Made by a program: the position numbers and the translations under genes | Source of the DNA: Escherichia phage SSBS18_WS_10_728 | Sequence record: MT322327.1 | Reading direction: 5' to 3' (one strand) | Length of the DNA: 64,000 nt | Notes under the pieces: generated by a model | Databases searched by the model: none | What the model was told of the DNA's origin: nothing | What the model saw: the letters and a program-made list of their open reading frames with translations, nothing else | Shown: positions 2,664-64,000 of the stretch, in pieces | Layout: each line of letters starts with the position of its first letter | Numbering within the stretch: position 1 is the first letter of the stretch

Positions 2664-10679
<8,016 letters not shown>

Positions 10680-26583: not shown

Positions 26584-26660
26584 CCAGACCAAGTTTTAAA
26601 TTTTTTCAAAATTAAATTGGCTTGAAAATATCATACGTGCTTGCTGAATTTGGTCTTCTG
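26584..26660 (-). ncRNA. Y-like hairpin element, copy 2 (no tRNA-like domain)
   Basis: Same closing stem with compensatory change (CCAGACCA ... TGGTCTTCTG) and conserved CAGCAA motif next to the stem. Confidence 0.3.
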
Positions 26661-26748
26661 CTCCTTTAAAGAACACTCGTAAGAACCCTTTAAGGGAGGG
26701 GCTAAAATAGCCCTCTCAAAACATCATCTTGAAATACTTATTATAATT

Positions 26749-26826
26749 TGGCGGTTACGAAGGGATTTGAACCCTCATCATCTCCCGTGACAGGGGAGTA
26801 TTTTAACCAGATTAAACTACATAACC
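26749..26826 (-). tRNA. tRNA-Asp (anticodon GTC)
   Basis: Acceptor GGTTATG/CGTAACC, anticodon stem-loop CTCCC-CTGTCAC-GGGAG, T-arm GAGGG-TTCAAAT-CCCTT, G73. Confidence 0.7.
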
Positions 26827-26832
26827 TTTATT

Positions 26833-26920
26833 TGGTGTGCCGTGTAGGAGTCGAACCTACCGAGTCTCAATGACAAGGGATTTACAGTCCCCACCGCTAC
26901 CATCTACGGGATAACGACAC
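26833..26920 (-). tRNA. tRNA-Tyr (anticodon GTA), type II
   Basis: Acceptor GTGTCGT/ACGGCAC, anticodon stem-loop GGGGA-CTGTAAA-TCCCT, long variable arm, T-arm GTAGG-TTCGACT-CCTAC, A73. Confidence 0.65.
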
Positions 26921-26929
26921 ATTTAAATT

Positions 26930-27006
26930 TGGCGGTTAGTCAGGGATTCGAACCCTGTGCCATTCGCTTAACAGGCGACCGCACATACCTTATGTGCTTC
27001 CTAACC
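26930..27006 (-). tRNA. tRNA-Asn (anticodon GTT)
   Basis: D stem GCAC/GTGC, anticodon loop CTGTTAA, T-arm CAGGG-TTCGAAT-CCCTG, G73. Confidence 0.7.
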
Positions 27007-27037
27007 TTAATACATTGCCAGACCGTGTTTTTTCTTT

Positions 27038-27077
27038 TATCCGCAAAAAGTATTTTGTTGCTGAATACGGTCTTCTG
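27038..27077 (-). ncRNA. Y-like hairpin element, copy 3 (short)
   Basis: CCAGACCG ... TTGCTGAATACGGTCTTCTG with AT-rich interior, between tRNA-Asn and the second tRNA-Met. Confidence 0.3.
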
Positions 27078-27083
27078 CAAAAT

Positions 27084-27160
27084 TGGAGGCGGGTGCAGGA
27101 GTCGAACCTGCCGATACCATGCTAATGAGACATGTGAGACGCCCTTTCTCTATACCCGCA
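27084..27160 (-). tRNA. tRNA-Met (anticodon CAT), second copy; unpaired 1-72 hints at initiator
   Basis: Anticodon stem-loop CATGT-CTCATTA-GCATG, D stem GAGA/TCTC, T-arm GCAGG-TTCGACT-CCTGC; first acceptor pair mismatched. Confidence 0.55.
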
Positions 27161-27171
27161 ATTCTTAATGA

Positions 27172-27244
27172 CCAGACCAAATCTCTTCTTTGTCCGATTT
27201 ACCTTCAGATGAATAAGATTAAGTTTGCTGTAATTGGTCTTCTG
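27172..27244 (-). ncRNA. Y-like hairpin element, copy 4
   Basis: CCAGACCA ... TTGCTGTAATTGGTCTTCTG; covariation with copies 1 and 3 preserves pairing. Confidence 0.3.
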
Positions 27245-27251
27245 TCAAAAC

Positions 27252-27329
27252 TGGCGTTCCAGAAGGGATTTGAACCCTCAAATATCCACTTTGAAAGAGT
27301 GGTGACTTTACCATTTTGTCCACTGGAAC
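27252..27329 (-). tRNA. tRNA-Glu (anticodon TTC)
   Basis: Acceptor GTTCCAG/CTGGAAC, anticodon stem-loop CCACT-CTTTCAA-AGTGG, T-arm GAGGG-TTCAAAT-CCCTT, G73. Confidence 0.7.
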
Positions 27330-27336
27330 ATTAATT

Positions 27337-27413
27337 TGGTCTCTGTTGGAGGACTTGAACCTCCGGCCTTACCGCCCCAAACGGAACGCTCTACCAAGCT
27401 GAGCTAAACAGAG
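27337..27413 (-). tRNA. tRNA-Pro (anticodon TGG)
   Basis: Acceptor CTCTGTT/AACAGAG, D-arm GCTCAGCTTGGTAGAGC, anticodon loop TTTGGGG, T-arm GGAGG-TTCAAGT-CCTCC, A73. Confidence 0.7.
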
Positions 27414-54295: not shown

Positions 54296-56095
54296 TTAAA
54301 GCTGCTTGTCAATATTATTTCGAATATCACCAAGAGTTGTGTAGCCGAACTGCTCAGAGTCGCTAAAGACCAAGCGTAAAGCACAAGCTGGGTGTTCAAG
54401 TGCATCTGCAAAGCTTTGGAACCCATAGCCATCTACAGCTTTCAGATTTTCACCATCCCACATAGGTGCTACACCACCAAAAGCAGACTTCTTAACACCG
54501 CTGTCTGTTTTAGGGTCTTTTGCAAGCATAATCTCTTTACCACCAATGCTTGCCAGAGTTGCTTTAACAGCAAATGCAAAGGTGTCACGAGTCATGTACT
54601 GGTAAGTGTAAGAACCTACACCAAACACTACGTTAGAGCTTGCAAAACCCATTTCATACAAACGTTTCAGGATTTCGTTTGCACGTTCCAACGTGATAGA
54701 GTCACCATAAATAAGCCCGATATGCTCATCCAGTACTTTAAAGCCTTTAGAGTTGATAGTTCCTCCAAAGATATTATACAGTGTCTTGATAGCTCCATCA
54801 ATCTCCGCTACAGGACGTGTGACAACGTTTGCAGAACCAACCATATAAGCGTTTTTCAACAGCACTGTATCAGCAACTTCAAAGTCTTCTCTGTCAACAA
54901 CCATTTCGTAGCCTTCTGACAGTAGCCACCCAGCAATACCATAGTTGATGTTTTCAAGCTTCATGTTCAGAACAGCATTCAACATTGTGTCGCTGGCTTC
55001 CAGCTTGCTTAGGTGTTCGTAATAAGCCTTTTTAGCACACTCTAAGTGGATTGCTTTATAGCCTGTGACAATATGTACAGGGTCTCCAGAGTCAGGACGA
55101 ATTACCAGTTTGCCATCACGTTCCATAATCTCTTTACGGAGTTCTGGGAGTATCACTGATACAGTTCTCCAGAAGTTATAAGTATCTGAAACAACACTTG
55201 CAATACCAGTTGGGTAAGTTTCTGTTAAGAAACGACGGAAGGTTTGTAACTCACCTTTAAAGCGTCTTTCTTCTTCAATCAACTCATTCCCACCTTCCCA
55301 AGCAATGTTTGCACACATGACAGAGTGCTCGGTGGCTGGTACAGAACTACCAATATCAGAGATTGGGTAGGACTGCCCATAGATGCGTTTAGCTGTATAC
55401 ACAGCAGGGAAGCTATCAGTCCCTTTAAAGCTGGTTAAGTGACCTACAGCGTTAAATGCGTCATCAGTAAAGCCGGACATACCACGCATAGCAAAATCAT
55501 GGCACTGATAAGGTAAATGTAAGTCATTGTCACAAGTAAGGTCAGACCACTTCTTACAGATACGTTTGTAGTGCAATGCAATAGTTGCAATGGTACAAGC
55601 CTTCCAAATCTCAGCAGAGAAAGCATCTTCCAGATACCCCGCTACCCAATGGAAACCTGAAACAGTGTTCTGGAAGACAACCATTGGTACACGCATAGGA
55701 ACAACTGTGCCTTCTTCTACAGCGTATACTTCAACTGGTAGATAACCTAAGTCGTGAAGTGCTTCCCAATGTTCTCGACCAATAGCATCTTTACCCAGAA
55801 CACCGTTCATGACTTCTAAGATTTCGTCAATTGCTTCTTTTTTGTCACGTTCAAAGAAGGTGGCGTTCCAGTGGTCTATCAAGTAATCTTTAACAAAACG
55901 TTGAATACCAAAAGCTACTACACCATCAATTGCTAAAGGGCTGTTAAACCATTTATCACTACGTGGTGTCAGGTTAAACATCAAGTACTCTGTCGCACTA
56001 GGATACTGATAAATATGGCCAGACTTGTAAGCATCCGCGTTTAAACCTGCTGGTACTGCATAAAGTGATTTAGTCATCTTTTTAATCTCTCTCAA
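54296..56095 (-). CDS. nicotinamide phosphoribosyltransferase-like protein (NAMPT/NadV family; possibly Namat)
   Basis: 599 aa; NAMPT-family character along full length; adjacent to Prs-like gene. Confidence 0.75.
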   Translation of the reverse strand: MREIKKMTKSLYAVPAGLNADAYKSGHIYQYPSATEYLMFNLTPRSDKWFNSPLAIDGVVAFGIQRFVKDYLIDHWNATFFERDKKEAIDEILEVMNGVLGKDAIGREHWEALHDLGYLPVEVYAVEEGTVVPMRVPMVVFQNTVSGFHWVAGYLEDAFSAEIWKACTIATIALHYKRICKKWSDLTCDNDLHLPYQCHDFAMRGMSGFTDDAFNAVGHLTSFKGTDSFPAVYTAKRIYGQSYPISDIGSSVPATEHSVMCANIAWEGGNELIEEERRFKGELQTFRRFLTETYPTGIASVVSDTYNFWRTVSVILPELRKEIMERDGKLVIRPDSGDPVHIVTGYKAIHLECAKKAYYEHLSKLEASDTMLNAVLNMKLENINYGIAGWLLSEGYEMVVDREDFEVADTVLLKNAYMVGSANVVTRPVAEIDGAIKTLYNIFGGTINSKGFKVLDEHIGLIYGDSITLERANEILKRLYEMGFASSNVVFGVGSYTYQYMTRDTFAFAVKATLASIGGKEIMLAKDPKTDSGVKKSAFGGVAPMWDGENLKAVDGYGFQSFADALEHPACALRLVFSDSEQFGYTTLGDIRNNIDKQL

Positions 56096-56123
56096 AATGG
56101 GGCTTGTAAGCCCCTATAAAGTT

Positions 56124-57026
56124 TCAATCAATGGTTACTACAGTAACTTGTGCATAATGTGTTAAGCCACGGTCTTTAGCTTCCCCTAAAGAGTTTGTAG
56201 TGTAGATATGGTCAATACCATTGTCAAGTAAGTTTTCAACCCCTTTAGAGAAAATGCCATGAGTTACATAGAGTTCCACACGTTTTGCACCTGCTTCACG
56301 AAGATGTTTAGCTGCCTCTATGAAGGTTCGACCACCATCACAAATATCATCCAGAATCATGACGGTTTTATCTGTCAAATCAACATCATCAAGGATTCGC
56401 ATACCAGTAATTTCACCAGTCTTAAGGTTGCGTACTTTAGACATTGTGATATATGGTTTATCCACCTCTTTAGCAGTCTCTTCAGTCTTCTTAGCTGCAC
56501 CTGCATCTGGGGCTACCAAGAAATCAATGCGTGGGTCACTTGCAAAGTGTGCTGCTACATCTTTTTGCTTCATGCTCTGAAAGCACTTAAATAAGTTTTC
56601 TGCAACATTACTGTGAGGGTCAAGAGCACATACTGCATCAAAACCCATTGCATTAACGAGGTTGGAAAAAGCTTTCAGTGCTGCTGAATCACCTTTGAAC
56701 ATATGGCGGTCATATCGAGCATTCGGTAAGAACCCGAAAACAACGGTTTTCATCGCTGATTTGTATGGAACAAGGCTGTCAACGGCATCCTTAGCCAAAG
56801 CTAATGCAAACAGTGTATCTTTATCATATCCCTGCACAGTCAATATAACATTGTCAATCTTACCAGCATTACGCTCAGTAAACTTAACAAAATCTTCAGA
56901 GAAGTTTCCACCAATTTCTCCAGATGGGAATTGGATGATATTAAATTTTTCTGTGTGGAAGAATTTCTCTTGTGCGGTGACAACGGCTTCAATAATAGTT
57001 TTCATAGCTCTCTCTCTCTTAATCAA
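56124..57026 (-). CDS. ribose-phosphate pyrophosphokinase-like protein (Prs family; possibly Adps)
   Basis: 300 aa; PRPP-binding loop VMILDDICDGGRTF. Confidence 0.75.
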   Translation of the reverse strand: MIKRERAMKTIIEAVVTAQEKFFHTEKFNIIQFPSGEIGGNFSEDFVKFTERNAGKIDNVILTVQGYDKDTLFALALAKDAVDSLVPYKSAMKTVVFGFLPNARYDRHMFKGDSAALKAFSNLVNAMGFDAVCALDPHSNVAENLFKCFQSMKQKDVAAHFASDPRIDFLVAPDAGAAKKTEETAKEVDKPYITMSKVRNLKTGEITGMRILDDVDLTDKTVMILDDICDGGRTFIEAAKHLREAGAKRVELYVTHGIFSKGVENLLDNGIDHIYTTNSLGEAKDRGLTHYAQVTVVTID

Positions 57027-57324
57027 AAGTTACGTTTGTTACTGCCATTGCAGATTTGCATTTTGCAGGGTCTACAACGTGATAAAGTACACTACAGTTG
57101 CCTGTGCTGTCTGGTACAGGTTTAACCCATTGTTGCTTGACAGTTGGTTCTCCTAAGTCTTTGTAAGAGCCATCTGTAAAATTGTTTACCATCTCAAGTG
57201 CAATTGGTTCTGGAACATGACCACGAATCATATACATCTCACAACCATTTCCAGCATCACTTATTAGGTCTTTTATTTCCCAATCTGCTTTAGCCATTGT
57301 AAGTTGCCCTATAAACTGTCTCAA
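57019..57324 (-). CDS. hypothetical protein
   Basis: 101 aa ORF. Confidence 0.35.
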   Translation of the reverse strand: MRQFIGQLTMAKADWEIKDLISDAGNGCEMYMIRGHVPEPIALEMVNNFTDGSYKDLGEPTVKQQWVKPVPDSTGNCSVLYHVVDPAKCKSAMAVTNVTFD

Positions 57325-57805
57325 ACTTCAACAGGAGAGATATTGCCAAATCTGTATAGTTGTTGTCAAGCACATCTGGCATATTATTTTTGATATATTT
57401 CTCTTGCTCTTCATAGGTCATCTTAGGAATGCTTAGGAGTCTATCTCCTTGCTTCTGGTTATCAGCTTTAGTTTGGATAAACCAGTTTGCACAGTGATGC
57501 TCGCCACCTTTTGTAACAGGCTTGTGGTGACCTAATGTGAAGGACTGGTTACCTGTGTACCTACAAAGCTTATTGAGCACTGCAATGGTGTTCTTAACAA
57601 CAAAACATTCATACAGGTTGTCTATGGTGTAATATGGATAATAGCGGAATAGTGCTCTTTCACGAGTACTATCACGATTCCAGAGAATCATGTGATTTGA
57701 GTTAGAAGGGTCGTATTGGTGGGAGTCAATGAACTCTTGACGTTCCTCAAAGCTTAGTCTTAGAACTGACATTGCAGCCGAACGTTTTAGATTTGACAGA
57801 TACAT
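57290..57805 (-). CDS. HNH endonuclease
   Basis: 171 aa; HNH motif LGHHKPVTKGGEHHCANWFIQTKADNQKQ. Confidence 0.6.
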   Translation of the reverse strand: MYLSNLKRSAAMSVLRLSFEERQEFIDSHQYDPSNSNHMILWNRDSTRERALFRYYPYYTIDNLYECFVVKNTIAVLNKLCRYTGNQSFTLGHHKPVTKGGEHHCANWFIQTKADNQKQGDRLLSIPKMTYEEQEKYIKNNMPDVLDNNYTDLAISLLLKFETVYRATYNG

Positions 57806-58464: not shown

Positions 58465-58820
58465 TAAAGTTTAATACAGAACTTATGAAGTTCTTCTTCA
58501 GTGATACCTATCGGAGTGATACCTTCTCTGATATTTTGAATCCTGTAGAAGTCTCCAAACTTATCTGATTCATGAATGACAAACGTGACATTCTTTACAA
58601 TCGTTGCAAGAGCACATAATGAACGTGAACCAAATTTTTCTCTCGTATAAATCATCCAAGCATCTAACTTGTTGATGTCGTAAGTCCACTTACCAGAATA
58701 ATCATTCTGCTCGCCATTGACAATCACCTTGCCACCCATACTCTTTTCTCCAGAGGTTTTGGTTATCAGAACCACGATATGGTTTAACTGTGGGTTTAGA
58801 TGAATCATACTTACCATCAA
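58464..58820 (-). CDS. hypothetical protein
   Basis: 118 aa ORF; 5' end overlaps NrdG gene, true start probably internal. Confidence 0.3.
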   Translation of the reverse strand: MMVSMIHLNPQLNHIVVLITKTSGEKSMGGKVIVNGEQNDYSGKWTYDINKLDAWMIYTREKFGSRSLCALATIVKNVTFVIHESDKFGDFYRIQNIREGITPIGITEEELHKFCIKL

Positions 58821-59187
58821 TCACCACGTCAACATATTTCATCACATCTAGGTGGATTTTTTCGTGTAACTGAAAACCTGTCCAAAGCCATATAGACTTT
58901 TCTGGATAAACAGTTTTAATACGCTTGCATATGTTGGTGACCTCTTGAATGTTTCTATCATCCAGAGGCTCCCCACCAAGTATTGATAGCCCACTGATGG
59001 CCTTATCATCCATTAACTTAATGATGCCGTAGAGGTTTGCATAAGTAAACTCTTTACCAGCATTAAACTTCCAAGACTCCCTGTTAAAGCAGCCTTCACA
59101 GTGATGTTTACAGCCAGCTACGAAGAGACTTACACGAACCCCTTCACCATTAGCTGTGTCAAATGGTCGAATCTCCATGTAATTCAT
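58702..59187 (-). CDS. nrdG: anaerobic ribonucleotide reductase activating protein (radical SAM)
   Basis: 161 aa; CxxxCxxC cluster GCKHHCEGC near N-terminus; adjacent to NrdD. Confidence 0.7.
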   Translation of the reverse strand: MNYMEIRPFDTANGEGVRVSLFVAGCKHHCEGCFNRESWKFNAGKEFTYANLYGIIKLMDDKAISGLSILGGEPLDDRNIQEVTNICKRIKTVYPEKSIWLWTGFQLHEKIHLDVMKYVDVVIDGKYDSSKPTVKPYRGSDNQNLWRKEYGWQGDCQWRAE

Positions 59188-59218: not shown

Positions 59219-59614
59219 TTACTCATACACTACCTGACAAGGAACATATTTAGTAATAAACTCTTCACAGTGCTCTTTAATGAAGTCTTGTAAGAGCACA
59301 CAGTCTTGTGCACAAGTCATGAGTGCAATATACTCTGGGTTCATAATGTTTTCAATGGTGTAGAAGACAACATTGTCAGATAATTCATGACCGTCTTCTT
59401 CAGACCAAGTTCCAGTGACTACAGCTAGTTTATCAAGTAACTCATTAGTTAATGCTACACCGTCTTCTACGGAATCACTTAGAACGTTGTCACTGATATA
59501 CAATGTGAAGGTTGTATGGAATATTGAATATCTTACGTGACTCTTTTCGCAAGAGCCACACTCTGAGGCGTAATCTTTAATCCACTCTAACTGTTTTTTG
59601 TTCAACTTAATCAT
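59219..59614 (-). CDS. hypothetical Cys-containing protein
   Basis: 131 aa ORF. Confidence 0.35.
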   Translation of the reverse strand: MIKLNKKQLEWIKDYASECGSCEKSHVRYSIFHTTFTLYISDNVLSDSVEDGVALTNELLDKLAVVTGTWSEEDGHELSDNVVFYTIENIMNPEYIALMTCAQDCVLLQDFIKEHCEEFITKYVPCQVVYE

Positions 59615-59811
59615 AATTTCACCTTAGTTGGCAATGCACTGAATGCTATAGCTAACCCTAAAAATGGTTTGAAGCATGACCATAAATCCATCTGACCATG
59701 ATATGCGAAACTCCATTGTGGGTCTGAAAAACCCCATACCATAACACTAACCCCAAAGAAGAAGATTAGTATGTGGAGTATGTATATCAACGTTTTTGGT
59801 GTTTTAAACAT
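59611..59811 (-). CDS. hypothetical small membrane protein
   Basis: 66 aa; two hydrophobic helices. Confidence 0.35.
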   Translation of the reverse strand: MFKTPKTLIYILHILIFFFGVSVMVWGFSDPQWSFAYHGQMDLWSCFKPFLGLAIAFSALPTKVKL

Positions 59812-59965
59812 TTTAACTTATCTCTCAACTCACAATAGGAGAGTCCTAAAAAGAACCCTAGTAAGACAGAACCTATGAAAAACCCAATAATACTCTCTGC
59901 CATATCTAACATCCAATAAAAAAGGTGATGTAAGCCTATCAAGACTCACACCACCTTGTCAAGTT

Positions 59966-62110
59966 TTACATAGAGACTCTATCACGAATCTCAGCAATTT
60001 TTGCATCGTTCATTCGGGATTCACCTTTAATCTTAGTCCACCCAAGATACCCACACACCCTGTTAATCACAGAGATATCATGTGAATGGCAAACCTCACA
60101 TTCTTCAACATCAGCCTTTGGTCTGTTACCACAATGCTCACAGATTGCTAGGTCAAAGTTAAGTCCCTGATAAAAACCTTTCAGCATCCCTCTTGTAATA
60201 CAACTCTTAAGTGCTGTTAAGTTTTCTGGGTTAGCTACCCTGACATACTGGATTCTGCCACCTCTACAGATATGGAAGAATGGCTCTTCTAAGTCCTGCT
60301 TCTCAAATGGTGAGATGTCTGCTGCAACATTCATATGGAAACTATTTGTAAAGTATTCCTTGTCAGAAACACCTTTGATAACACCAAACATTTCTCTGAA
60401 CTGTTTTAGCTGAGTTCCACAAAGTGATTCTGCTGGAGTACCATAGACAGCGTATAAGAAGCCATCTTCATTTTTAAACTCTTCAGTTTTCATGTTGATG
60501 TATGCCAGAACATCGTATGCAAAACTATAGCTTCCAACTTCATGAAGTCGTTTACCTTCAGCGAGAACAGATAACTCATCAAGCGCAGTAACCCCAAAAG
60601 AAGCTGTGAAGGACTTCACGATATCCCAACCAACCTTATCAGTAGGCTTCTTAGTCCCTTTGTACAGACCACCTTGTGTGAACGCAAGAGGGTTAGAGCT
60701 TGCTGGCATGTTAGCAATCATTTCATAGCGTTTCTTGTGGAAGCTGCGAATCATCTCTAGGTACTTATCAAGCTCTTTCCAGAAATCTAAACCATTATCT
60801 TTAGAATACTGGTAAATCATTGGCAAGTTCAAAGATACAGCACCAATGTTAGCACGACCTACATAGAACTCTTCCCCATTCTCGTTAAGATATGGAGATA
60901 AGAAAGCTCTGCAACCCATCGGTGAAATCACCTTACCAGAACGCTTAAAAGCATCTGCTACAGCACCATGACCAGATACACTTAAGAAATCTGGATACAT
61001 CGCTTTAGAGCAACACTCAATAGCTTTTTCAAACAACCTTGCTTGGCATACATCAAGTTTATGTCTTGTCTCTTCATAGATATACACAAGTTTAGGAAAC
61101 ACAACAGGTTTTTTGCTTTTTCCTTGCCCGTTCATCCTTACATTAAGGATTGTATTGGCAATCATAAACTGAAGGCGGTTATCTTCATTGTGCATATCTG
61201 GTTCCAACAGGCCAAATGTCAGAGTAGTAAATGCAAAATCACCGCGACTGCAAGGAACAGTGTTAAGTTTCATTTCAAGAGATTGGAAACCTTGTGTTAA
61301 CTCATTCTGTAATTGCTCCATTACGTAATTATAGTGTTGCTCTTTAGGTATTCCGTACTCTTCAGCTTTCTCTGAGTGGTACACTAAAGATTTTTTAGCA
61401 TACGGTACAAGTACCTTGTCAATCTCTGCTAAAGTAAAGCCACCAAATTGCTGTGCAGTTGCTGAAAGAACTACATCACCAATAACCTGTAAGGCTGACA
61501 GCACAGACTTCGGTTCACAGTATTCAATTCCAGACATTTCAAAGCCACCTTTCAGTACTTTACCAATGTCGAACAGGCAACAGTTGATACCACCAAAAAT
61601 TAGGTCTCTCAAGTCATGGATGTAGATAAACCCTTTTTCAATGGCTTCAAGTTCCTCTGGTGTTAAATGGTACTGTTTAAAGATTTCTTTAGTCAGATAA
61701 CCACGAATAATTGAACCTTTTGTAGAAATTAAACTGCTGTCAAAGTTAGCATTTTCACGGTCACCTAAGAAGAGTGTATCTCTAGTCTTTTGGTAAAGCT
61801 CGTCCCAATTTTGAGCAACCTCTTTACGGTAATTTCTATATGTTGAGTAGGACTCATAAATCTCGTGATTAACTTCTGCCAAAGCACCCTCAACAATACT
61901 GTGAATATCATTTACCGAGATGAGCAAATTATTCTGCTTAGTGGACTTTACCAGAATCCTCATAAATGCTGACTCAAGAGCTTGGGTAACATCTGGTGGA
62001 AGTTCTTTATACCCAACCCTGTTAGCTGACTTAGTTACTGCTGCTAAAACTTTTTTGATATCAGGTTCTTCAAGTGAGCCATTCTTTTTAATAATCTGTA
62101 CTTTGTTCAT
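59966..62110 (-). CDS. nrdD: anaerobic ribonucleoside-triphosphate reductase (class III)
   Basis: 714 aa; N-terminal ATP-cone-like region, C-terminal zinc ribbon CEHCG...CEVCH and glycyl-radical motif RVCGYLG. Confidence 0.85.
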   Translation of the reverse strand: MNKVQIIKKNGSLEEPDIKKVLAAVTKSANRVGYKELPPDVTQALESAFMRILVKSTKQNNLLISVNDIHSIVEGALAEVNHEIYESYSTYRNYRKEVAQNWDELYQKTRDTLFLGDRENANFDSSLISTKGSIIRGYLTKEIFKQYHLTPEELEAIEKGFIYIHDLRDLIFGGINCCLFDIGKVLKGGFEMSGIEYCEPKSVLSALQVIGDVVLSATAQQFGGFTLAEIDKVLVPYAKKSLVYHSEKAEEYGIPKEQHYNYVMEQLQNELTQGFQSLEMKLNTVPCSRGDFAFTTLTFGLLEPDMHNEDNRLQFMIANTILNVRMNGQGKSKKPVVFPKLVYIYEETRHKLDVCQARLFEKAIECCSKAMYPDFLSVSGHGAVADAFKRSGKVISPMGCRAFLSPYLNENGEEFYVGRANIGAVSLNLPMIYQYSKDNGLDFWKELDKYLEMIRSFHKKRYEMIANMPASSNPLAFTQGGLYKGTKKPTDKVGWDIVKSFTASFGVTALDELSVLAEGKRLHEVGSYSFAYDVLAYINMKTEEFKNEDGFLYAVYGTPAESLCGTQLKQFREMFGVIKGVSDKEYFTNSFHMNVAADISPFEKQDLEEPFFHICRGGRIQYVRVANPENLTALKSCITRGMLKGFYQGLNFDLAICEHCGNRPKADVEECEVCHSHDISVINRVCGYLGWTKIKGESRMNDAKIAEIRDRVSM

Positions 62111-62158
62111 TATTGCCCCTTTACATGCTAAAAAGGTCTCCGAAGAGACCCTTTCATT

Positions 62159-62365
62159 TTAAATCTTTTTAGAAAACTTTGAAATGAGTTTTCTTAGTTT
62201 TTTAGTGATGCCTAGCTGTATCTCTAATATTTCAATGATAACCCATAGTAACATGGCTCCAAACAATGAACCTTGTTCAAAATCAGTAAATAGGTTAACA
62301 ACAAGCATACCAATCACAATGGCTGGTGCATCAACAACCAAGCCTTCCCAAAGGCGTTTAAGCAT
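62159..62365 (-). CDS. hypothetical small membrane protein
   Basis: 68 aa; hydrophobic segments. Confidence 0.35.
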   Translation of the reverse strand: MLKRLWEGLVVDAPAIVIGMLVVNLFTDFEQGSLFGAMLLWVIIEILEIQLGITKKLRKLISKFSKKI

Positions 62366-62600
62366 TATTCACCTCTGCCATAAAATTCTGTAGTGTTCCG
62401 ACAGGCTTTAGATTTTGACCATCCGTTTTCATGATGAATGGCATCTGGCGAACTGGCATCTGTGCAATATCTATCAGGTCTGACAGTTCATAATCCTGCC
62501 CTAACATTCTCACAACATGGTCAACACCACGAGCTTTTGCAAAATTCTTTGCAGTCTCACACTGAGGGCATCCAGTTTTGGAGTAAATTACATAAGTCAT
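62358..62600 (-). CDS. glutaredoxin-like protein (NrdH/Grx)
   Basis: 80 aa; CPQC active site in thioredoxin-fold context. Confidence 0.7.
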   Translation of the reverse strand: MTYVIYSKTGCPQCETAKNFAKARGVDHVVRMLGQDYELSDLIDIAQMPVRQMPFIMKTDGQNLKPVGTLQNFMAEVNNA

Positions 62601-63673
62601 TAAGGAACCTCTAAAAATCCACTATTCAAATCATCTACAACAGTATTCAATAAATACGCACCGTTCTGTTGCTCCTGATTAGCATTCTGCTCTTTATCAA
62701 TTTCCATCTTCTTAATCATATACTTCAAAGGTGGTTCTTTAGGAGCTACAAAATCTCTAGGAATGCCAAACATATCATACAGTGGGGCAGCATTATAGTA
62801 AACCCACTCATGAAGAAGCTTTGTATTTAACCCAACTACAGCACGTCCTTCGGAGAAGATATAATACGACCATTTTTCTTCGCTTTCAACTACTTCATCT
62901 AAGATTACTTTAATCTCTGGAAGAATTTGTTGGAAAGCTTTTTGCCACTCATCATCTCTTAAAGTTTCTTTTAAAACTTCAATATCAATTTTAGTGTGAA
63001 GGATTTCATCAAGCATAATTTTCTGGACAGCTTGAGCAATACCCTGAAATTTATCTTGAGCATCAAGTGCAAAAGTACATGCAAAGGATGCCATAAAGGA
63101 TATACCTTCCAGTGCAGTCACTGCAAATAGACCTTTTAGAATCACTTTATGGAAGTGCAAAGGGTCTTTGTCCAGAAGTGAGTCACGGACATAACTCAGC
63201 CGATAGTTGATACCTTCATCCAGCAATTCTTCAAGAACACGATTCACAGTTTTTAATCGGTCTTGTACAGCAATGTTCTGGTTAATCTCATCTAAGATTG
63301 TTTCAGGGTTTTTAATACACTGTCTTACAATCTCCGAGTAAGTAAGAGCATGTAGGTTTTCAATCTCAGACTGCTTCATAATTGCAGTTGCATAAATGTC
63401 ATCAGAGATGAATGGTGCAAAAGCAAACGCTAAACTCTTAGCAACTTGGGTGTCTGCTTCCCACTGCCACTTAAGAATCTCAAGCATTACACCTGACATT
63501 GATGCTGGTACGCTTTCAAAGTCAAGACGTGATTGTTCAAAAGGGAACTCATCTTCTGACCAATCTTGTGCTTTTTGTTGTTTGTACAGTTCAAAGATTT
63601 TTGGGTAGTGTTTATTAAGTGAGTCAAATGTCTTTCTCTCACCACCTAAAAAGATTGGGTGTTGGTTAATCAT
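62600..63673 (-). CDS. ribonucleotide reductase small subunit-like protein (ferritin-like diiron)
   Basis: ORF-track ORF 62600..63733 trimmed to ATG 63673 with AAGGAG RBS; ExxH motifs (ENLH, EILH). Confidence 0.6.
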   Translation of the reverse strand: MINQHPIFLGGERKTFDSLNKHYPKIFELYKQQKAQDWSEDEFPFEQSRLDFESVPASMSGVMLEILKWQWEADTQVAKSLAFAFAPFISDDIYATAIMKQSEIENLHALTYSEIVRQCIKNPETILDEINQNIAVQDRLKTVNRVLEELLDEGINYRLSYVRDSLLDKDPLHFHKVILKGLFAVTALEGISFMASFACTFALDAQDKFQGIAQAVQKIMLDEILHTKIDIEVLKETLRDDEWQKAFQQILPEIKVILDEVVESEEKWSYYIFSEGRAVVGLNTKLLHEWVYYNAAPLYDMFGIPRDFVAPKEPPLKYMIKKMEIDKEQNANQEQQNGAYLLNTVVDDLNSGFLEVP

Positions 63674-63993
63674 AGTGTGATTTCTCCTTTCTTTATCATC
63701 TCTAAGGCTTGTTTTCTGTCTAAAACTTCCCAATTTTCTTTGTTAAACATGTCATAAGGTCTTGCATAGATTTTACCATCTGCTGTAGAGATGTAAGAGA
63801 CACCAGCGACCCATGAGTCATCCTTCTGTTTTATCATCATATCTGTGCTACTCACATAGTACAGCGTTTTCCGAGGTTTGTGGAGCAAGTATATGGGCCA
63901 TTCGTGATTTGCTATTAAGTCTTTCATAGTTTCTCCAAAGTTATTTTTAGAGGGTCTTTTACGACCCTCATAGTTATTAAAACTAAACACCAC
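63670..63993 (-). CDS. hypothetical protein
   Basis: 107 aa ORF at window edge; start uncertain. Confidence 0.3.
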   Translation of the reverse strand: MVFSFNNYEGRKRPSKNNFGETMKDLIANHEWPIYLLHKPRKTLYYVSSTDMMIKQKDDSWVAGVSYISTADGKIYARPYDMFNKENWEVLDRKQALEMIKKGEITL

Positions 63994-64000
63994 AACCCTC

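Follow-up and report, generated by a model that had tools for sequence, protein, structure and literature searches.

The larger part of a Felix O1-type nrdABDG deoxynucleotide-supply module in a Felixounavirus-like Escherichia phage

Close to one end of a 64,000-nucleotide stretch of DNA from Escherichia phage SSBS18_WS_10_728 (sequence record MT322327.1; the whole stretch is referred to as the window), the genes of a class III anaerobic ribonucleotide reductase (RNR) are found together with a gene for a class I small subunit (R2), a redoxin gene and, nearby, an open reading frame (ORF) with HNH-like features. The locus raises the question of whether these genes form one system for deoxynucleotide (dNTP) supply, in which an apparently solitary R2 has its large subunit, and whether a homing endonuclease has inserted among them. 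Here, the segment is considered to hold most of an nrdABDG dNTP-supply module of the Felix O1 type, belonging to a Felixounavirus-like (Ounavirinae) phage, with NrdAB and the redoxin serving oxic and NrdDG anoxic conditions, a reading to which a probability of about 95% is given.

The recognizable RNR and redoxin genes of the block are as follows.

63983..64000, minus strand: 3′ end of nrdA (class I large subunit), the last five codons and the stop, encoding ...EGCGV and cut by the window edge
62600..63673, minus strand: nrdB, class I (Ia-type by its residues) RNR small subunit, 357 aa
62358..62600, minus strand: glutaredoxin-fold redoxin, 80 aa, with C11-P-Q-C14
59966..62110, minus strand: nrdD, class III anaerobic ribonucleoside-triphosphate reductase, 714 aa, with an N-terminal ATP-cone
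58702..59187, minus strand: nrdG, radical-SAM activase of NrdD, 161 aa

The block is the standard deoxynucleotide-synthesis module of Felix O1-like enterobacterial phages and was already published in 2010, when the Felix O1 genome paper described an "nrdABDG cluster" and an 80-aa glutaredoxin-like protein, proposed there as the reductant (Whichard et al. 2010, PMC3185647). Gene identities, residue conservation and gene order are direct observations; on the minus strand the end of nrdA is followed by an 85-aa ORF, nrdB, the glutaredoxin-like gene, a 68-aa ORF, nrdD, small ORFs and nrdG. Over 7 kb the block is 93-95% identical at the nucleotide level to more than 200 Felixounavirus genomes (230 or more records with the same genes annotated), and it was found in 259 phage records. 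Felix O1, wV8, UAB_Phi87, D4 and LinBro, along with those more than 200 genomes, share its genes, their order, their overlaps and the small intervening ORFs. The differences are allelic only: nrdD is without an intron here, and an HNH_3 gene that is found between nadV and prs in D4 and LinBro is missing from the window. The ORFs lie where the initial annotation had placed them, all on the minus strand, and its main interpretation (a class III NrdD and NrdG with a class I R2 and a glutaredoxin) is upheld by Pfam, NCBIfam and PHROG profiles (the last with phrog_ identifiers) and by residues aligned with the sequences of solved structures, namely E. coli R2 (1jpr) and T4 NrdD (1h78). The E-values of these family matches lie well outside what chance would give, each catalytic, cofactor or radical residue checked is in place, and no finding speaks against the reading.

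NrdD matches the Pfam families NRDD (PF13597, 5.8e-115), ATP-cone (6.6e-12) and Gly_radical (1.6e-4), reaches 487.8 bits against NCBIfam TIGR02487 (cutoff 326) and follows the enterobacterial full-length model PRK09263 from end to end. When aligned with T4 NrdD (1.8e-78), G687 within RVCGYLG falls on T4 Gly580 (Ala in the crystal mutant), C400 within PMGCRAF on the thiyl Cys290 and N421 on Asn311, while the C177/C178 pair aligns with the T4 NCC and the four-Cys site C657/C660/C671/C674 with the T4 Zn cysteines. The glycyl-radical motif noted earlier thus belongs to a genuine class III NrdD. The glycyl, thiyl and Zn-site residues are common to both proteins; in contrast to the T4 protein, whose solved chain has 605 aa, the window NrdD carries an N-terminal ATP-cone, like enterobacterial NrdD, and the alignment starts only at its residue 118. 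The gene is intact, a single uninterrupted frame, and is an intron-less allele. In relatives, a group-I-intron-like insert with an HNH gene is located at the nrdD active-site cysteine codon; this insert is absent from the window, and the intron HNH is patchily distributed (61 of about 259 records). Across the wider family, RNR genes serve as targets both of group I introns and of homing endonucleases.

The activase gene is located 0.8 kb downstream of nrdD. NrdG scores 197.8 bits against TIGR02491 (cutoff 126), 2.4e-43 against PF13353 and 1.5e-67 against phrog_626, and it has the CX3CX2C motif as C26-x3-C30-x2-C33. The activase reported by the initial annotation is therefore real, but it lies outside the span 59966-63673 to which it had been assigned.

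Between and around these genes are several small ORFs and two hairpins.

63950..63969, minus strand: GC-rich hairpin of 7 bp, GAGGGUC-guaaaa-GACCCUC, between the nrdA stop and the 85-aa ORF
63670..63927, minus strand: conserved 85-aa ORF between nrdA and nrdB, phrog_2652 (2.5e-38)
62159..62365, minus strand: small, conserved hydrophobic ORF, 68 aa, between the redoxin gene and nrdD, phrog_4532 (8.1e-41)
59922..59957, minus strand: candidate terminator-like hairpin, a 16-pair stem followed by TTTTATT
59219..59942, minus strand: three small conserved ORFs between nrdD and nrdG, of which two are short and hydrophobic (59787-59942 and 59611-59811; membrane or hypothetical proteins at the same positions in relatives) and one encodes a 131-aa protein (59219-59614; phrog_4382, 1.5e-61)

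The 85-aa ORF is annotated as a hypothetical protein in D4 and LinBro. Its ATG at 63927 is preceded by GGAG, its stop overlaps the nrdB ATG (ATGA), and the phrog_2652 match covers residues 23-107 of a longer, 107-aa reading of the same frame. The 68-aa ORF overlaps the end of the redoxin gene by 8 nt, and the annotations of Felix O1 and UAB_Phi87 call its product a hypothetical membrane protein. The terminator-like hairpin, found by a consensus scan, begins 9 nt past the nrdD stop. The hairpin at 63950-63969 folds as RNA at -15.6 kcal/mol (z = -3.6) and is invariant in two aligned relatives; the coding strand shows no T run after it, which sets it apart from a canonical terminator. A scan of the whole window at Rfam gathering thresholds returned tRNAs only, with no RNA element within the nrd block. 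Promoter-like matches between 57000 and 64000 (17) are no commoner than in shuffled sequence (19.0 ± 4.2), and none of them is put forward as a promoter.

The remaining ORF of interest lies downstream of the nrd block, beside prs.

57290..57805, minus strand: conserved HNH-like (H-N-N) protein, 171 aa, outside the RNR machinery

This protein belongs to phrog_3500 (8.1e-92), a family of unknown function, and in the family alignment H93, G100, G101 and N107 are invariant and N116 is nearly so. An AF2 model built from a diverse alignment (pLDDT 90.5) predicts a beta-beta-alpha core formed by beta89-93, beta108-112 and alpha113-119; an earlier model from a shallow alignment, confined to relatives of 74% identity or more, had a pLDDT of 38 and was discarded. 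Foldseek comparison of the model with BFVD returned the protein's own family first and then named matches that are almost all HNH endonucleases, the best being an Aeh1 HNH (E 5e-3), and there is a weak match to the HNH family phrog_2214 (1.9e-4). Comparison of its profile with PDB sequences gave no usable evidence (Gme HNH, 4h9d, only at E 0.79), and a search for homologous proteins recovered close relatives only. Matches of the family to Staphylococcus protein A constructs were rejected as spurious, multi-repeat hits arising through the N-terminal 'EERxxFIxS' helix.

A tblastn search recovered the ORF from 428 phage records, which span two subfamilies. Its identity goes down in steps as the phage groups become more distant, being about 90-99% in Felixounavirus, 76% in Mooglevirus, 44-53% in Yersinia and Erwinia phages and about 40% in Stephanstirmvirinae. 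In all six Ounavirinae-type loci inspected (Felixounavirus, Mooglevirus, Kolesnikvirus and others) the ORF lies upstream of prs. The number of records, the stepwise identity and the fixed site by prs form a pattern of vertical inheritance. To judge from this conservation, the ORF is a syntenic, vertically conserved gene outside the nrd block and no homing-endonuclease insertion.

One or more of the small, strictly conserved genes within the RNR block or beside it, that is the 85-aa ORF, the 68-aa membrane ORF and the 171-aa protein by prs/nadV as a domesticated HNH-like protein, might be unrecognised accessory factors of dNTP supply, although this is unlikely; if it were so, the HNH-like protein could be a nuclease that degrades host DNA for nucleotide salvage and not a selfish element.

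Still less probable is the origin suggested by the initial annotation, in which the 171-aa ORF would be a free-standing HNH homing endonuclease that had invaded the nucleotide-metabolism block. Such an origin would suit the conserved H..N..N motif, the predicted core and the weak phrog_2214 and Aeh1 matches, and relatives do carry mobile HNH genes in the same block. Against it stand the stepwise identity over so many records and the constant place upstream of prs, a distribution unlike that of the patchy nrdD intron HNH; moreover, the mobile HNHs of relatives combine HNH_3 with AP2 or NUMOD, an architecture that this protein does not have. What stands of the earlier claim is the HNH-like motif with its predicted core, whereas the position within the block and the mobility do not. 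The ORF near the nrd block should not be annotated as a homing-endonuclease insertion.

The redoxin gene overlaps the nrdB stop by 1 nt, and its product corresponds to the Felix O1 80-aa glutaredoxin-like protein (PMC3185647). The glutaredoxin fold proposed earlier for the CPQC protein is supported by Pfam Glutaredoxin (PF00462) at 4.1e-7 and 30.5 bits, above the cutoff of 22.9, and the protein matches phrog_22 'thioredoxin domain' at 1.3e-13. Against the NCBIfam models for NrdH, Grx3 and YruB it scores 20-25 bits where the cutoffs are 85-99, which gives no subfamily membership, and PDB sequences match it only weakly (E >= 0.026); its type, be it Grx, NrdH or T4-NrdC, cannot be assigned from such scores.

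Thioredoxin-like reductants are used by some NrdD subtypes, and the redoxin gene is placed between nrdB and nrdD, so the client of the redoxin might be sought in the class III enzyme, or elsewhere, instead of in NrdAB. This is very doubtful. T4 NrdD is formate-dependent, and the window NrdD agrees with it at the C400 and N421 positions. In addition, the inspected stretch of Erwinia phage Panisse (Kolesnikvirus) keeps nrdA, nrdB and grx together with no nrdD or nrdG, and so links the redoxin with the class I enzyme.

The class I enzyme itself is represented by NrdB, read as 357 aa from an ATG (an alternative TTG at 63733 would give 377 aa). The protein matches Pfam Ribonuc_red_sm (PF00268) at 4.4e-34, its 118.6 bits far exceeding the cutoff of 33.6, as well as phrog_86 at 1.7e-102, and it aligns over its full length with E. 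coli R2 (3.4e-27). All metal ligands are kept (D74, E105, H108, E189, E223 and H226 for E. coli D84, E115, H118, E204, E238 and H241), as are the radical tyrosine (Y112 for Y122) and the radical-transfer residues (W38 and Y340 for W48 and Y356). The ferritin-like protein of the initial annotation is accordingly a genuine class I R2. The best NCBIfam model is that of class Ia beta, NF006576, at 131 bits, under the equivalog cutoff of 346; subclass Ia is assigned from residues only, within a divergent phage lineage. As NrdB and the E. coli-type NrdD model both fall below NCBIfam equivalog cutoffs, these proteins are regarded as divergent phage versions.

The R2 appears to be an orphan because the window edge cuts inside nrdA. 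Phages D4 and LinBro, the two relatives compared by annotation, both have a 2235-nt nrdA directly upstream, exactly at this spot, and its 3′ end agrees letter for letter with positions 63983-64000, the final 18 nt of the window. NrdA of D4 has 744 aa, ends in ...AYCEGCGV and contains the Pfam domains Ribonuc_red_lgC (4.7e-91) and Ribonuc_red_lgN (2.7e-14) and a weak ATP-cone; matches to nrdA occur in 259 phage records, the same number as for the block. It is near-certain from these observations that nrdA of this genome, of which the window itself holds only the 18 nt, lies just past position 64000, where the initial annotation had supposed that the large-subunit partner might be. That the protein comes from some diiron family other than RNR, or that it is an R2 left alone or decaying in a genome without a large subunit, can hardly be entertained, for although so little of nrdA is visible and the class Ia equivalog score is low, the Pfam R2 score, the seven conserved metal and radical residues with the W48 and Y356 equivalents, the end of the window within nrdA, and the adjacent nrdA of the relatives all speak against it. 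A non-RNR diiron family combined with a genome lacking nrdA, which would have counted against the initial annotation, is not what was found.

Family knowledge suggests how the module might work, with respect to enzymatic activity, electron donor and the use of formate. In the presence of oxygen, NrdB would form the diiron-tyrosyl radical cofactor at Y112 and hand the radical to NrdA, which would then reduce NDPs. The CPQC redoxin encoded alongside is the most plausible candidate for re-reducing the C-terminal Cys pair of NrdA (…YCEGCGV in relatives), and might in turn be reduced by glutathione or by thioredoxin reductase. When oxygen is absent, NrdG, with its [4Fe-4S] cluster and SAM bound through CX3CX2C, would make the glycyl radical on G687 of NrdD, which would reduce NTPs by way of the thiyl at C400, probably with formate as the reductant, as for the T4 and E. 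coli enzymes. The N-terminal ATP-cone of NrdD may confer ATP/dATP regulation. Both enzymes together could provide phage dNTPs in oxic and anoxic gut hosts, and in this way the block would account for continued dNTP synthesis by Felix O1-like phages in enteric hosts, whether aerobic or anaerobic. Its importance is mainly for right annotation.

A comparable set of genes is found in T4 (nrdA, nrdB, the thioredoxin gene nrdC, nrdD/sunY, nrdG and nrdH), which likewise combines class Ia and class III RNR with a small phage redoxin. In contrast to T4, the RNR genes here form one contiguous block, and the CPQC redoxin is not recognisably an orthologue of NrdC or NrdH. The E. coli and Salmonella NrdAB (class Ia) and NrdDG (class III) have domain architectures and catalytic residues in common with the window proteins, yet the latter are divergent, under equivalog cutoffs and phage-encoded, and their genes share a cluster with a redoxin of their own and with small phage-specific ORFs.

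The RNR genes at the end of the window belong to a Felix O1-type nrd cluster, and their arrangement is the standard dual-RNR one. The initial annotation placed the RNR block at 59966-63673, which corresponds exactly to four ORFs but leaves nrdG outside. Every gene in the final 10 kb of the window is oriented on the minus strand, including the following:

54296-57026, minus strand: two genes immediately downstream of the nrd cluster, encoding a 599-aa nicotinamide phosphoribosyltransferase (nadV) and a 300-aa ribose-phosphate pyrophosphokinase (prs)
57290-57805, minus strand: 171-aa ORF, initially called an HNH endonuclease
58702-59187, minus strand: nrdG activase, outside the 59966-63673 span
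59966-62110, minus strand: nrdD, 714-aa ORF
62159-62365, minus strand: 68-aa ORF
62358-62600, minus strand: CPQC redoxin (grx), 80-aa ORF
62600-63673, minus strand: nrdB, 357-aa ORF counted from ATG (20 residues longer if the TTG at 63733 is the start)

In the annotated Felixounavirus relatives D4 and LinBro the order is nrdA, small ORF, nrdB, redoxin, small ORF, nrdD, small ORFs, nrdG, small ORFs, 171-aa ORF, 92-aa ORF, prs, nadV and rIIA, and a nucleotide search with the 7-kb region matched 259 records in total, of which over 200 from Felixounavirus are 93-95% identical to it. The small ORF/nrdB and nrdB/grx junctions overlap by 4 nt (ATGA) and 1 nt, respectively, which suggests co-translation, and a strong terminator-like hairpin is predicted 3′ of nrdD (59922-59957). 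Both aerobic and anaerobic RNR subunits are listed in the Felix O1 genome paper (PMC3185647), and a table in the UAB_Phi87 paper holds the same genes in identical order (PMC4837284), so the nrd module was already known. Nothing about this textbook phage module, which had been published before, is anomalous; the initial observation is confirmed and its interpretation supported, except for a side remark on the HNH ORF.

The class I large subunit had been thought to lie perhaps just past the window end, and this is almost certainly so. The final 18 bases (63983-64000) encode EGCGV and a stop codon and are identical to the nrdA 3′ end in both D4 and LinBro, where nrdA occupies this position, and an nrdA query retrieves 259 records, the same count as for the block; the "missing" subunit is thus almost certainly an artefact of the window's end. 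The D4 NrdA (744 aa) has lgN and lgC RNR domains, a weak ATP-cone and a C-terminal cysteine pair (…YCEGCGV). Relatives are annotated with a 113-aa ORF at 63670-63993 that overlaps the nrdA end. Because a PHROG profile covers only its last 85 residues and GGAG stands 5′ of the ATG at 63927, the shorter 85-aa version is suggested to be the true ORF. A conserved 7-bp GC hairpin (63950-63969) separates the nrdA stop from this ATG.

The ferritin-like protein noticed upstream of nrdD is, as proposed, a class I R2 (PF00268, 4.4e-34; phrog_86, 1.7e-102). When aligned with E. coli R2 (3.4e-27) it retains D74, E105, H108, Y112, E189, E223 and H226, together with the radical-path residues W38 and Y340. 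Judged from this alignment, the residue pattern is diiron-tyrosyl (Ia-type), which rules out a non-RNR ferritin-like protein. NrdB does not reach the NCBIfam equivalog cutoff for class Ia and hence represents a divergent phage lineage. The CPQC protein, initially called a glutaredoxin, is glutaredoxin-like: it passes the Pfam Glutaredoxin threshold and carries C11PQC14; NCBIfam profiles gave no curated subfamily placement (NrdH, Grx3 or other), and its matches to PDB sequences are weak.

The identification of NrdD and its activase likewise stands. NrdD matches the Pfam models NRDD (5.8e-115), ATP-cone (6.6e-12) and Gly_radical (1.6e-4), and exceeds the cutoff of TIGR02487 (487.8 bits against 326). 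Alignment with the solved T4 NrdD (1.8e-78) places G687 (RVCGYLG) at Gly580, C400 (PMGCRAF) at Cys290, N421 at Asn311, C177/C178 at the NCC position, and C657/C660/C671/C674 at the four-Cys metal site. NrdG (161 aa) passes TIGR02491 (197.8 bits, cutoff 126) and has the CX3CX2C motif C26-x3-C30-x2-C33.

The RNR enzymes of E. coli and T4 are well-characterised families, and the activities proposed here are modelled on them, gene identities and residues having been assigned by sequence. With oxygen present, the NrdB Y112 radical would drive NDP reduction in NrdA; the CPQC redoxin encoded alongside is the most plausible agent to restore the NrdA C-terminal cysteines to their reduced state afterwards. 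Under anoxic conditions, NrdG and SAM would generate the radical on NrdD G687 for NTP reduction, with formate probably serving as reductant and the ATP-cone of NrdD predicted to exert allosteric on/off control. Panisse, an Erwinia-infecting Ounavirinae phage of the genus Kolesnikvirus, keeps nrdA-nrdB-grx as well as the 171-aa, prs and nadV genes (L005 1057-8613, its locus), and nrdD and nrdG are not annotated in this inspected stretch; this associates the redoxin with the class I enzyme. Such a pattern would fit an anaerobic enzyme that is gained or lost as a module according to host lifestyle. The nadV and prs genes make up the NAD/PRPP module known from Felix O1, and relatives encode a MazG-like pyrophosphatase and an NAD synthetase beyond nrdA.

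The 171-aa ORF had been described as an HNH homing-endonuclease insertion inside the RNR block. A probable HNH-like nuclease core survives scrutiny, but neither the placement nor the insertion does. The protein falls in phrog_3500 (unknown function) with a weak HNH match (phrog_2214, 1.9e-4); the window's own protein is not recognised by the Pfam HNH model, which matches one or two other family members per scan (E 0.0085-0.03). The family is small and phage-only, with 16 matches at E ≤ 0.001 among 1.84 billion representatives of 50% identity clusters, and its members are always near prs/nadV or nrd genes. In a diverse alignment H93, G100, G101 and N107 are invariant and P96, H103, W108, Q111, N116 and D121 nearly so, a motif that reads as the HNH signature in an H-N-N form. 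An AF2 model from this alignment (pLDDT 90.5) has a beta-beta-alpha unit (89-93, 108-112, 113-119) within a helical scaffold. Its non-family matches among viral predicted structures are almost all HNH endonucleases, albeit weak (best E 5e-3), and no significant neighbour was found in the PDB. A mobile insertion is rejected: 428 phage records contain the gene, its identity declines step by step from Felixounavirus to Mooglevirus, then to Yersinia and Erwinia phages and finally to Stephanstirmvirinae, each of the six inspected Ounavirinae-type loci has it at a constant position shortly upstream of prs, and it lies outside the nrd block proper. The protein is possibly a domesticated nuclease.

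In this phage family RNR genes are indeed targets for homing endonucleases, although the wrong ORF was implicated. Genuine mobile HNH genes occupy this neighbourhood in relatives, and the window lacks all of them. Between nadV and prs, D4 and LinBro carry a 163-aa HNH_3 + AP2-like endonuclease gene (L001 4625-5116, the relatives' locus), where the window has an empty site, a 28-nt spacer (56096-56123). LinBro and others also contain an nrdD insert of ~740 nt with an HNH_3 + NUMOD1 ORF (L002 ~9846-10677, the LinBro locus), the RNA of which is group-I-intron-like in LinBro (RF00028, 33 bits, E 2e-6, below the gathering score). The insert interrupts nrdD precisely where the G399 codon meets that of the catalytic C400 (window 60911-60916), and the window's nrdD is the intron-less allele. 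Directly downstream of the site, the two alleles differ visibly more over ~40 nt of exon than they do in the flanks. The insert is patchily distributed; at least 80% of it is present in 61 records and about half of it in others, the latter possibly being ORF-less introns. Split nrdD genes in this genus have been reported previously (PMC4837284).

Elsewhere in the window, ARAGORN predicts a minus-strand block of 26 tRNA genes (22385-27413), 24 of which pass Rfam gathering; 22 were reported for Felix O1. Two conserved ORFs of unassigned function lie within this block:

22559-23356: DUF7217 ORF
23745-24302: DUF7338 ORF

Among public records, GU169904.1, MG065650.1 and OK283618.1, labelled as Staphylococcus phage SA1, Campylobacter phages and Listeria phage LPML1, show up to 94% nucleotide identity to this enterobacterial lineage, or the same gene order, and are probably host mislabels or contaminants.
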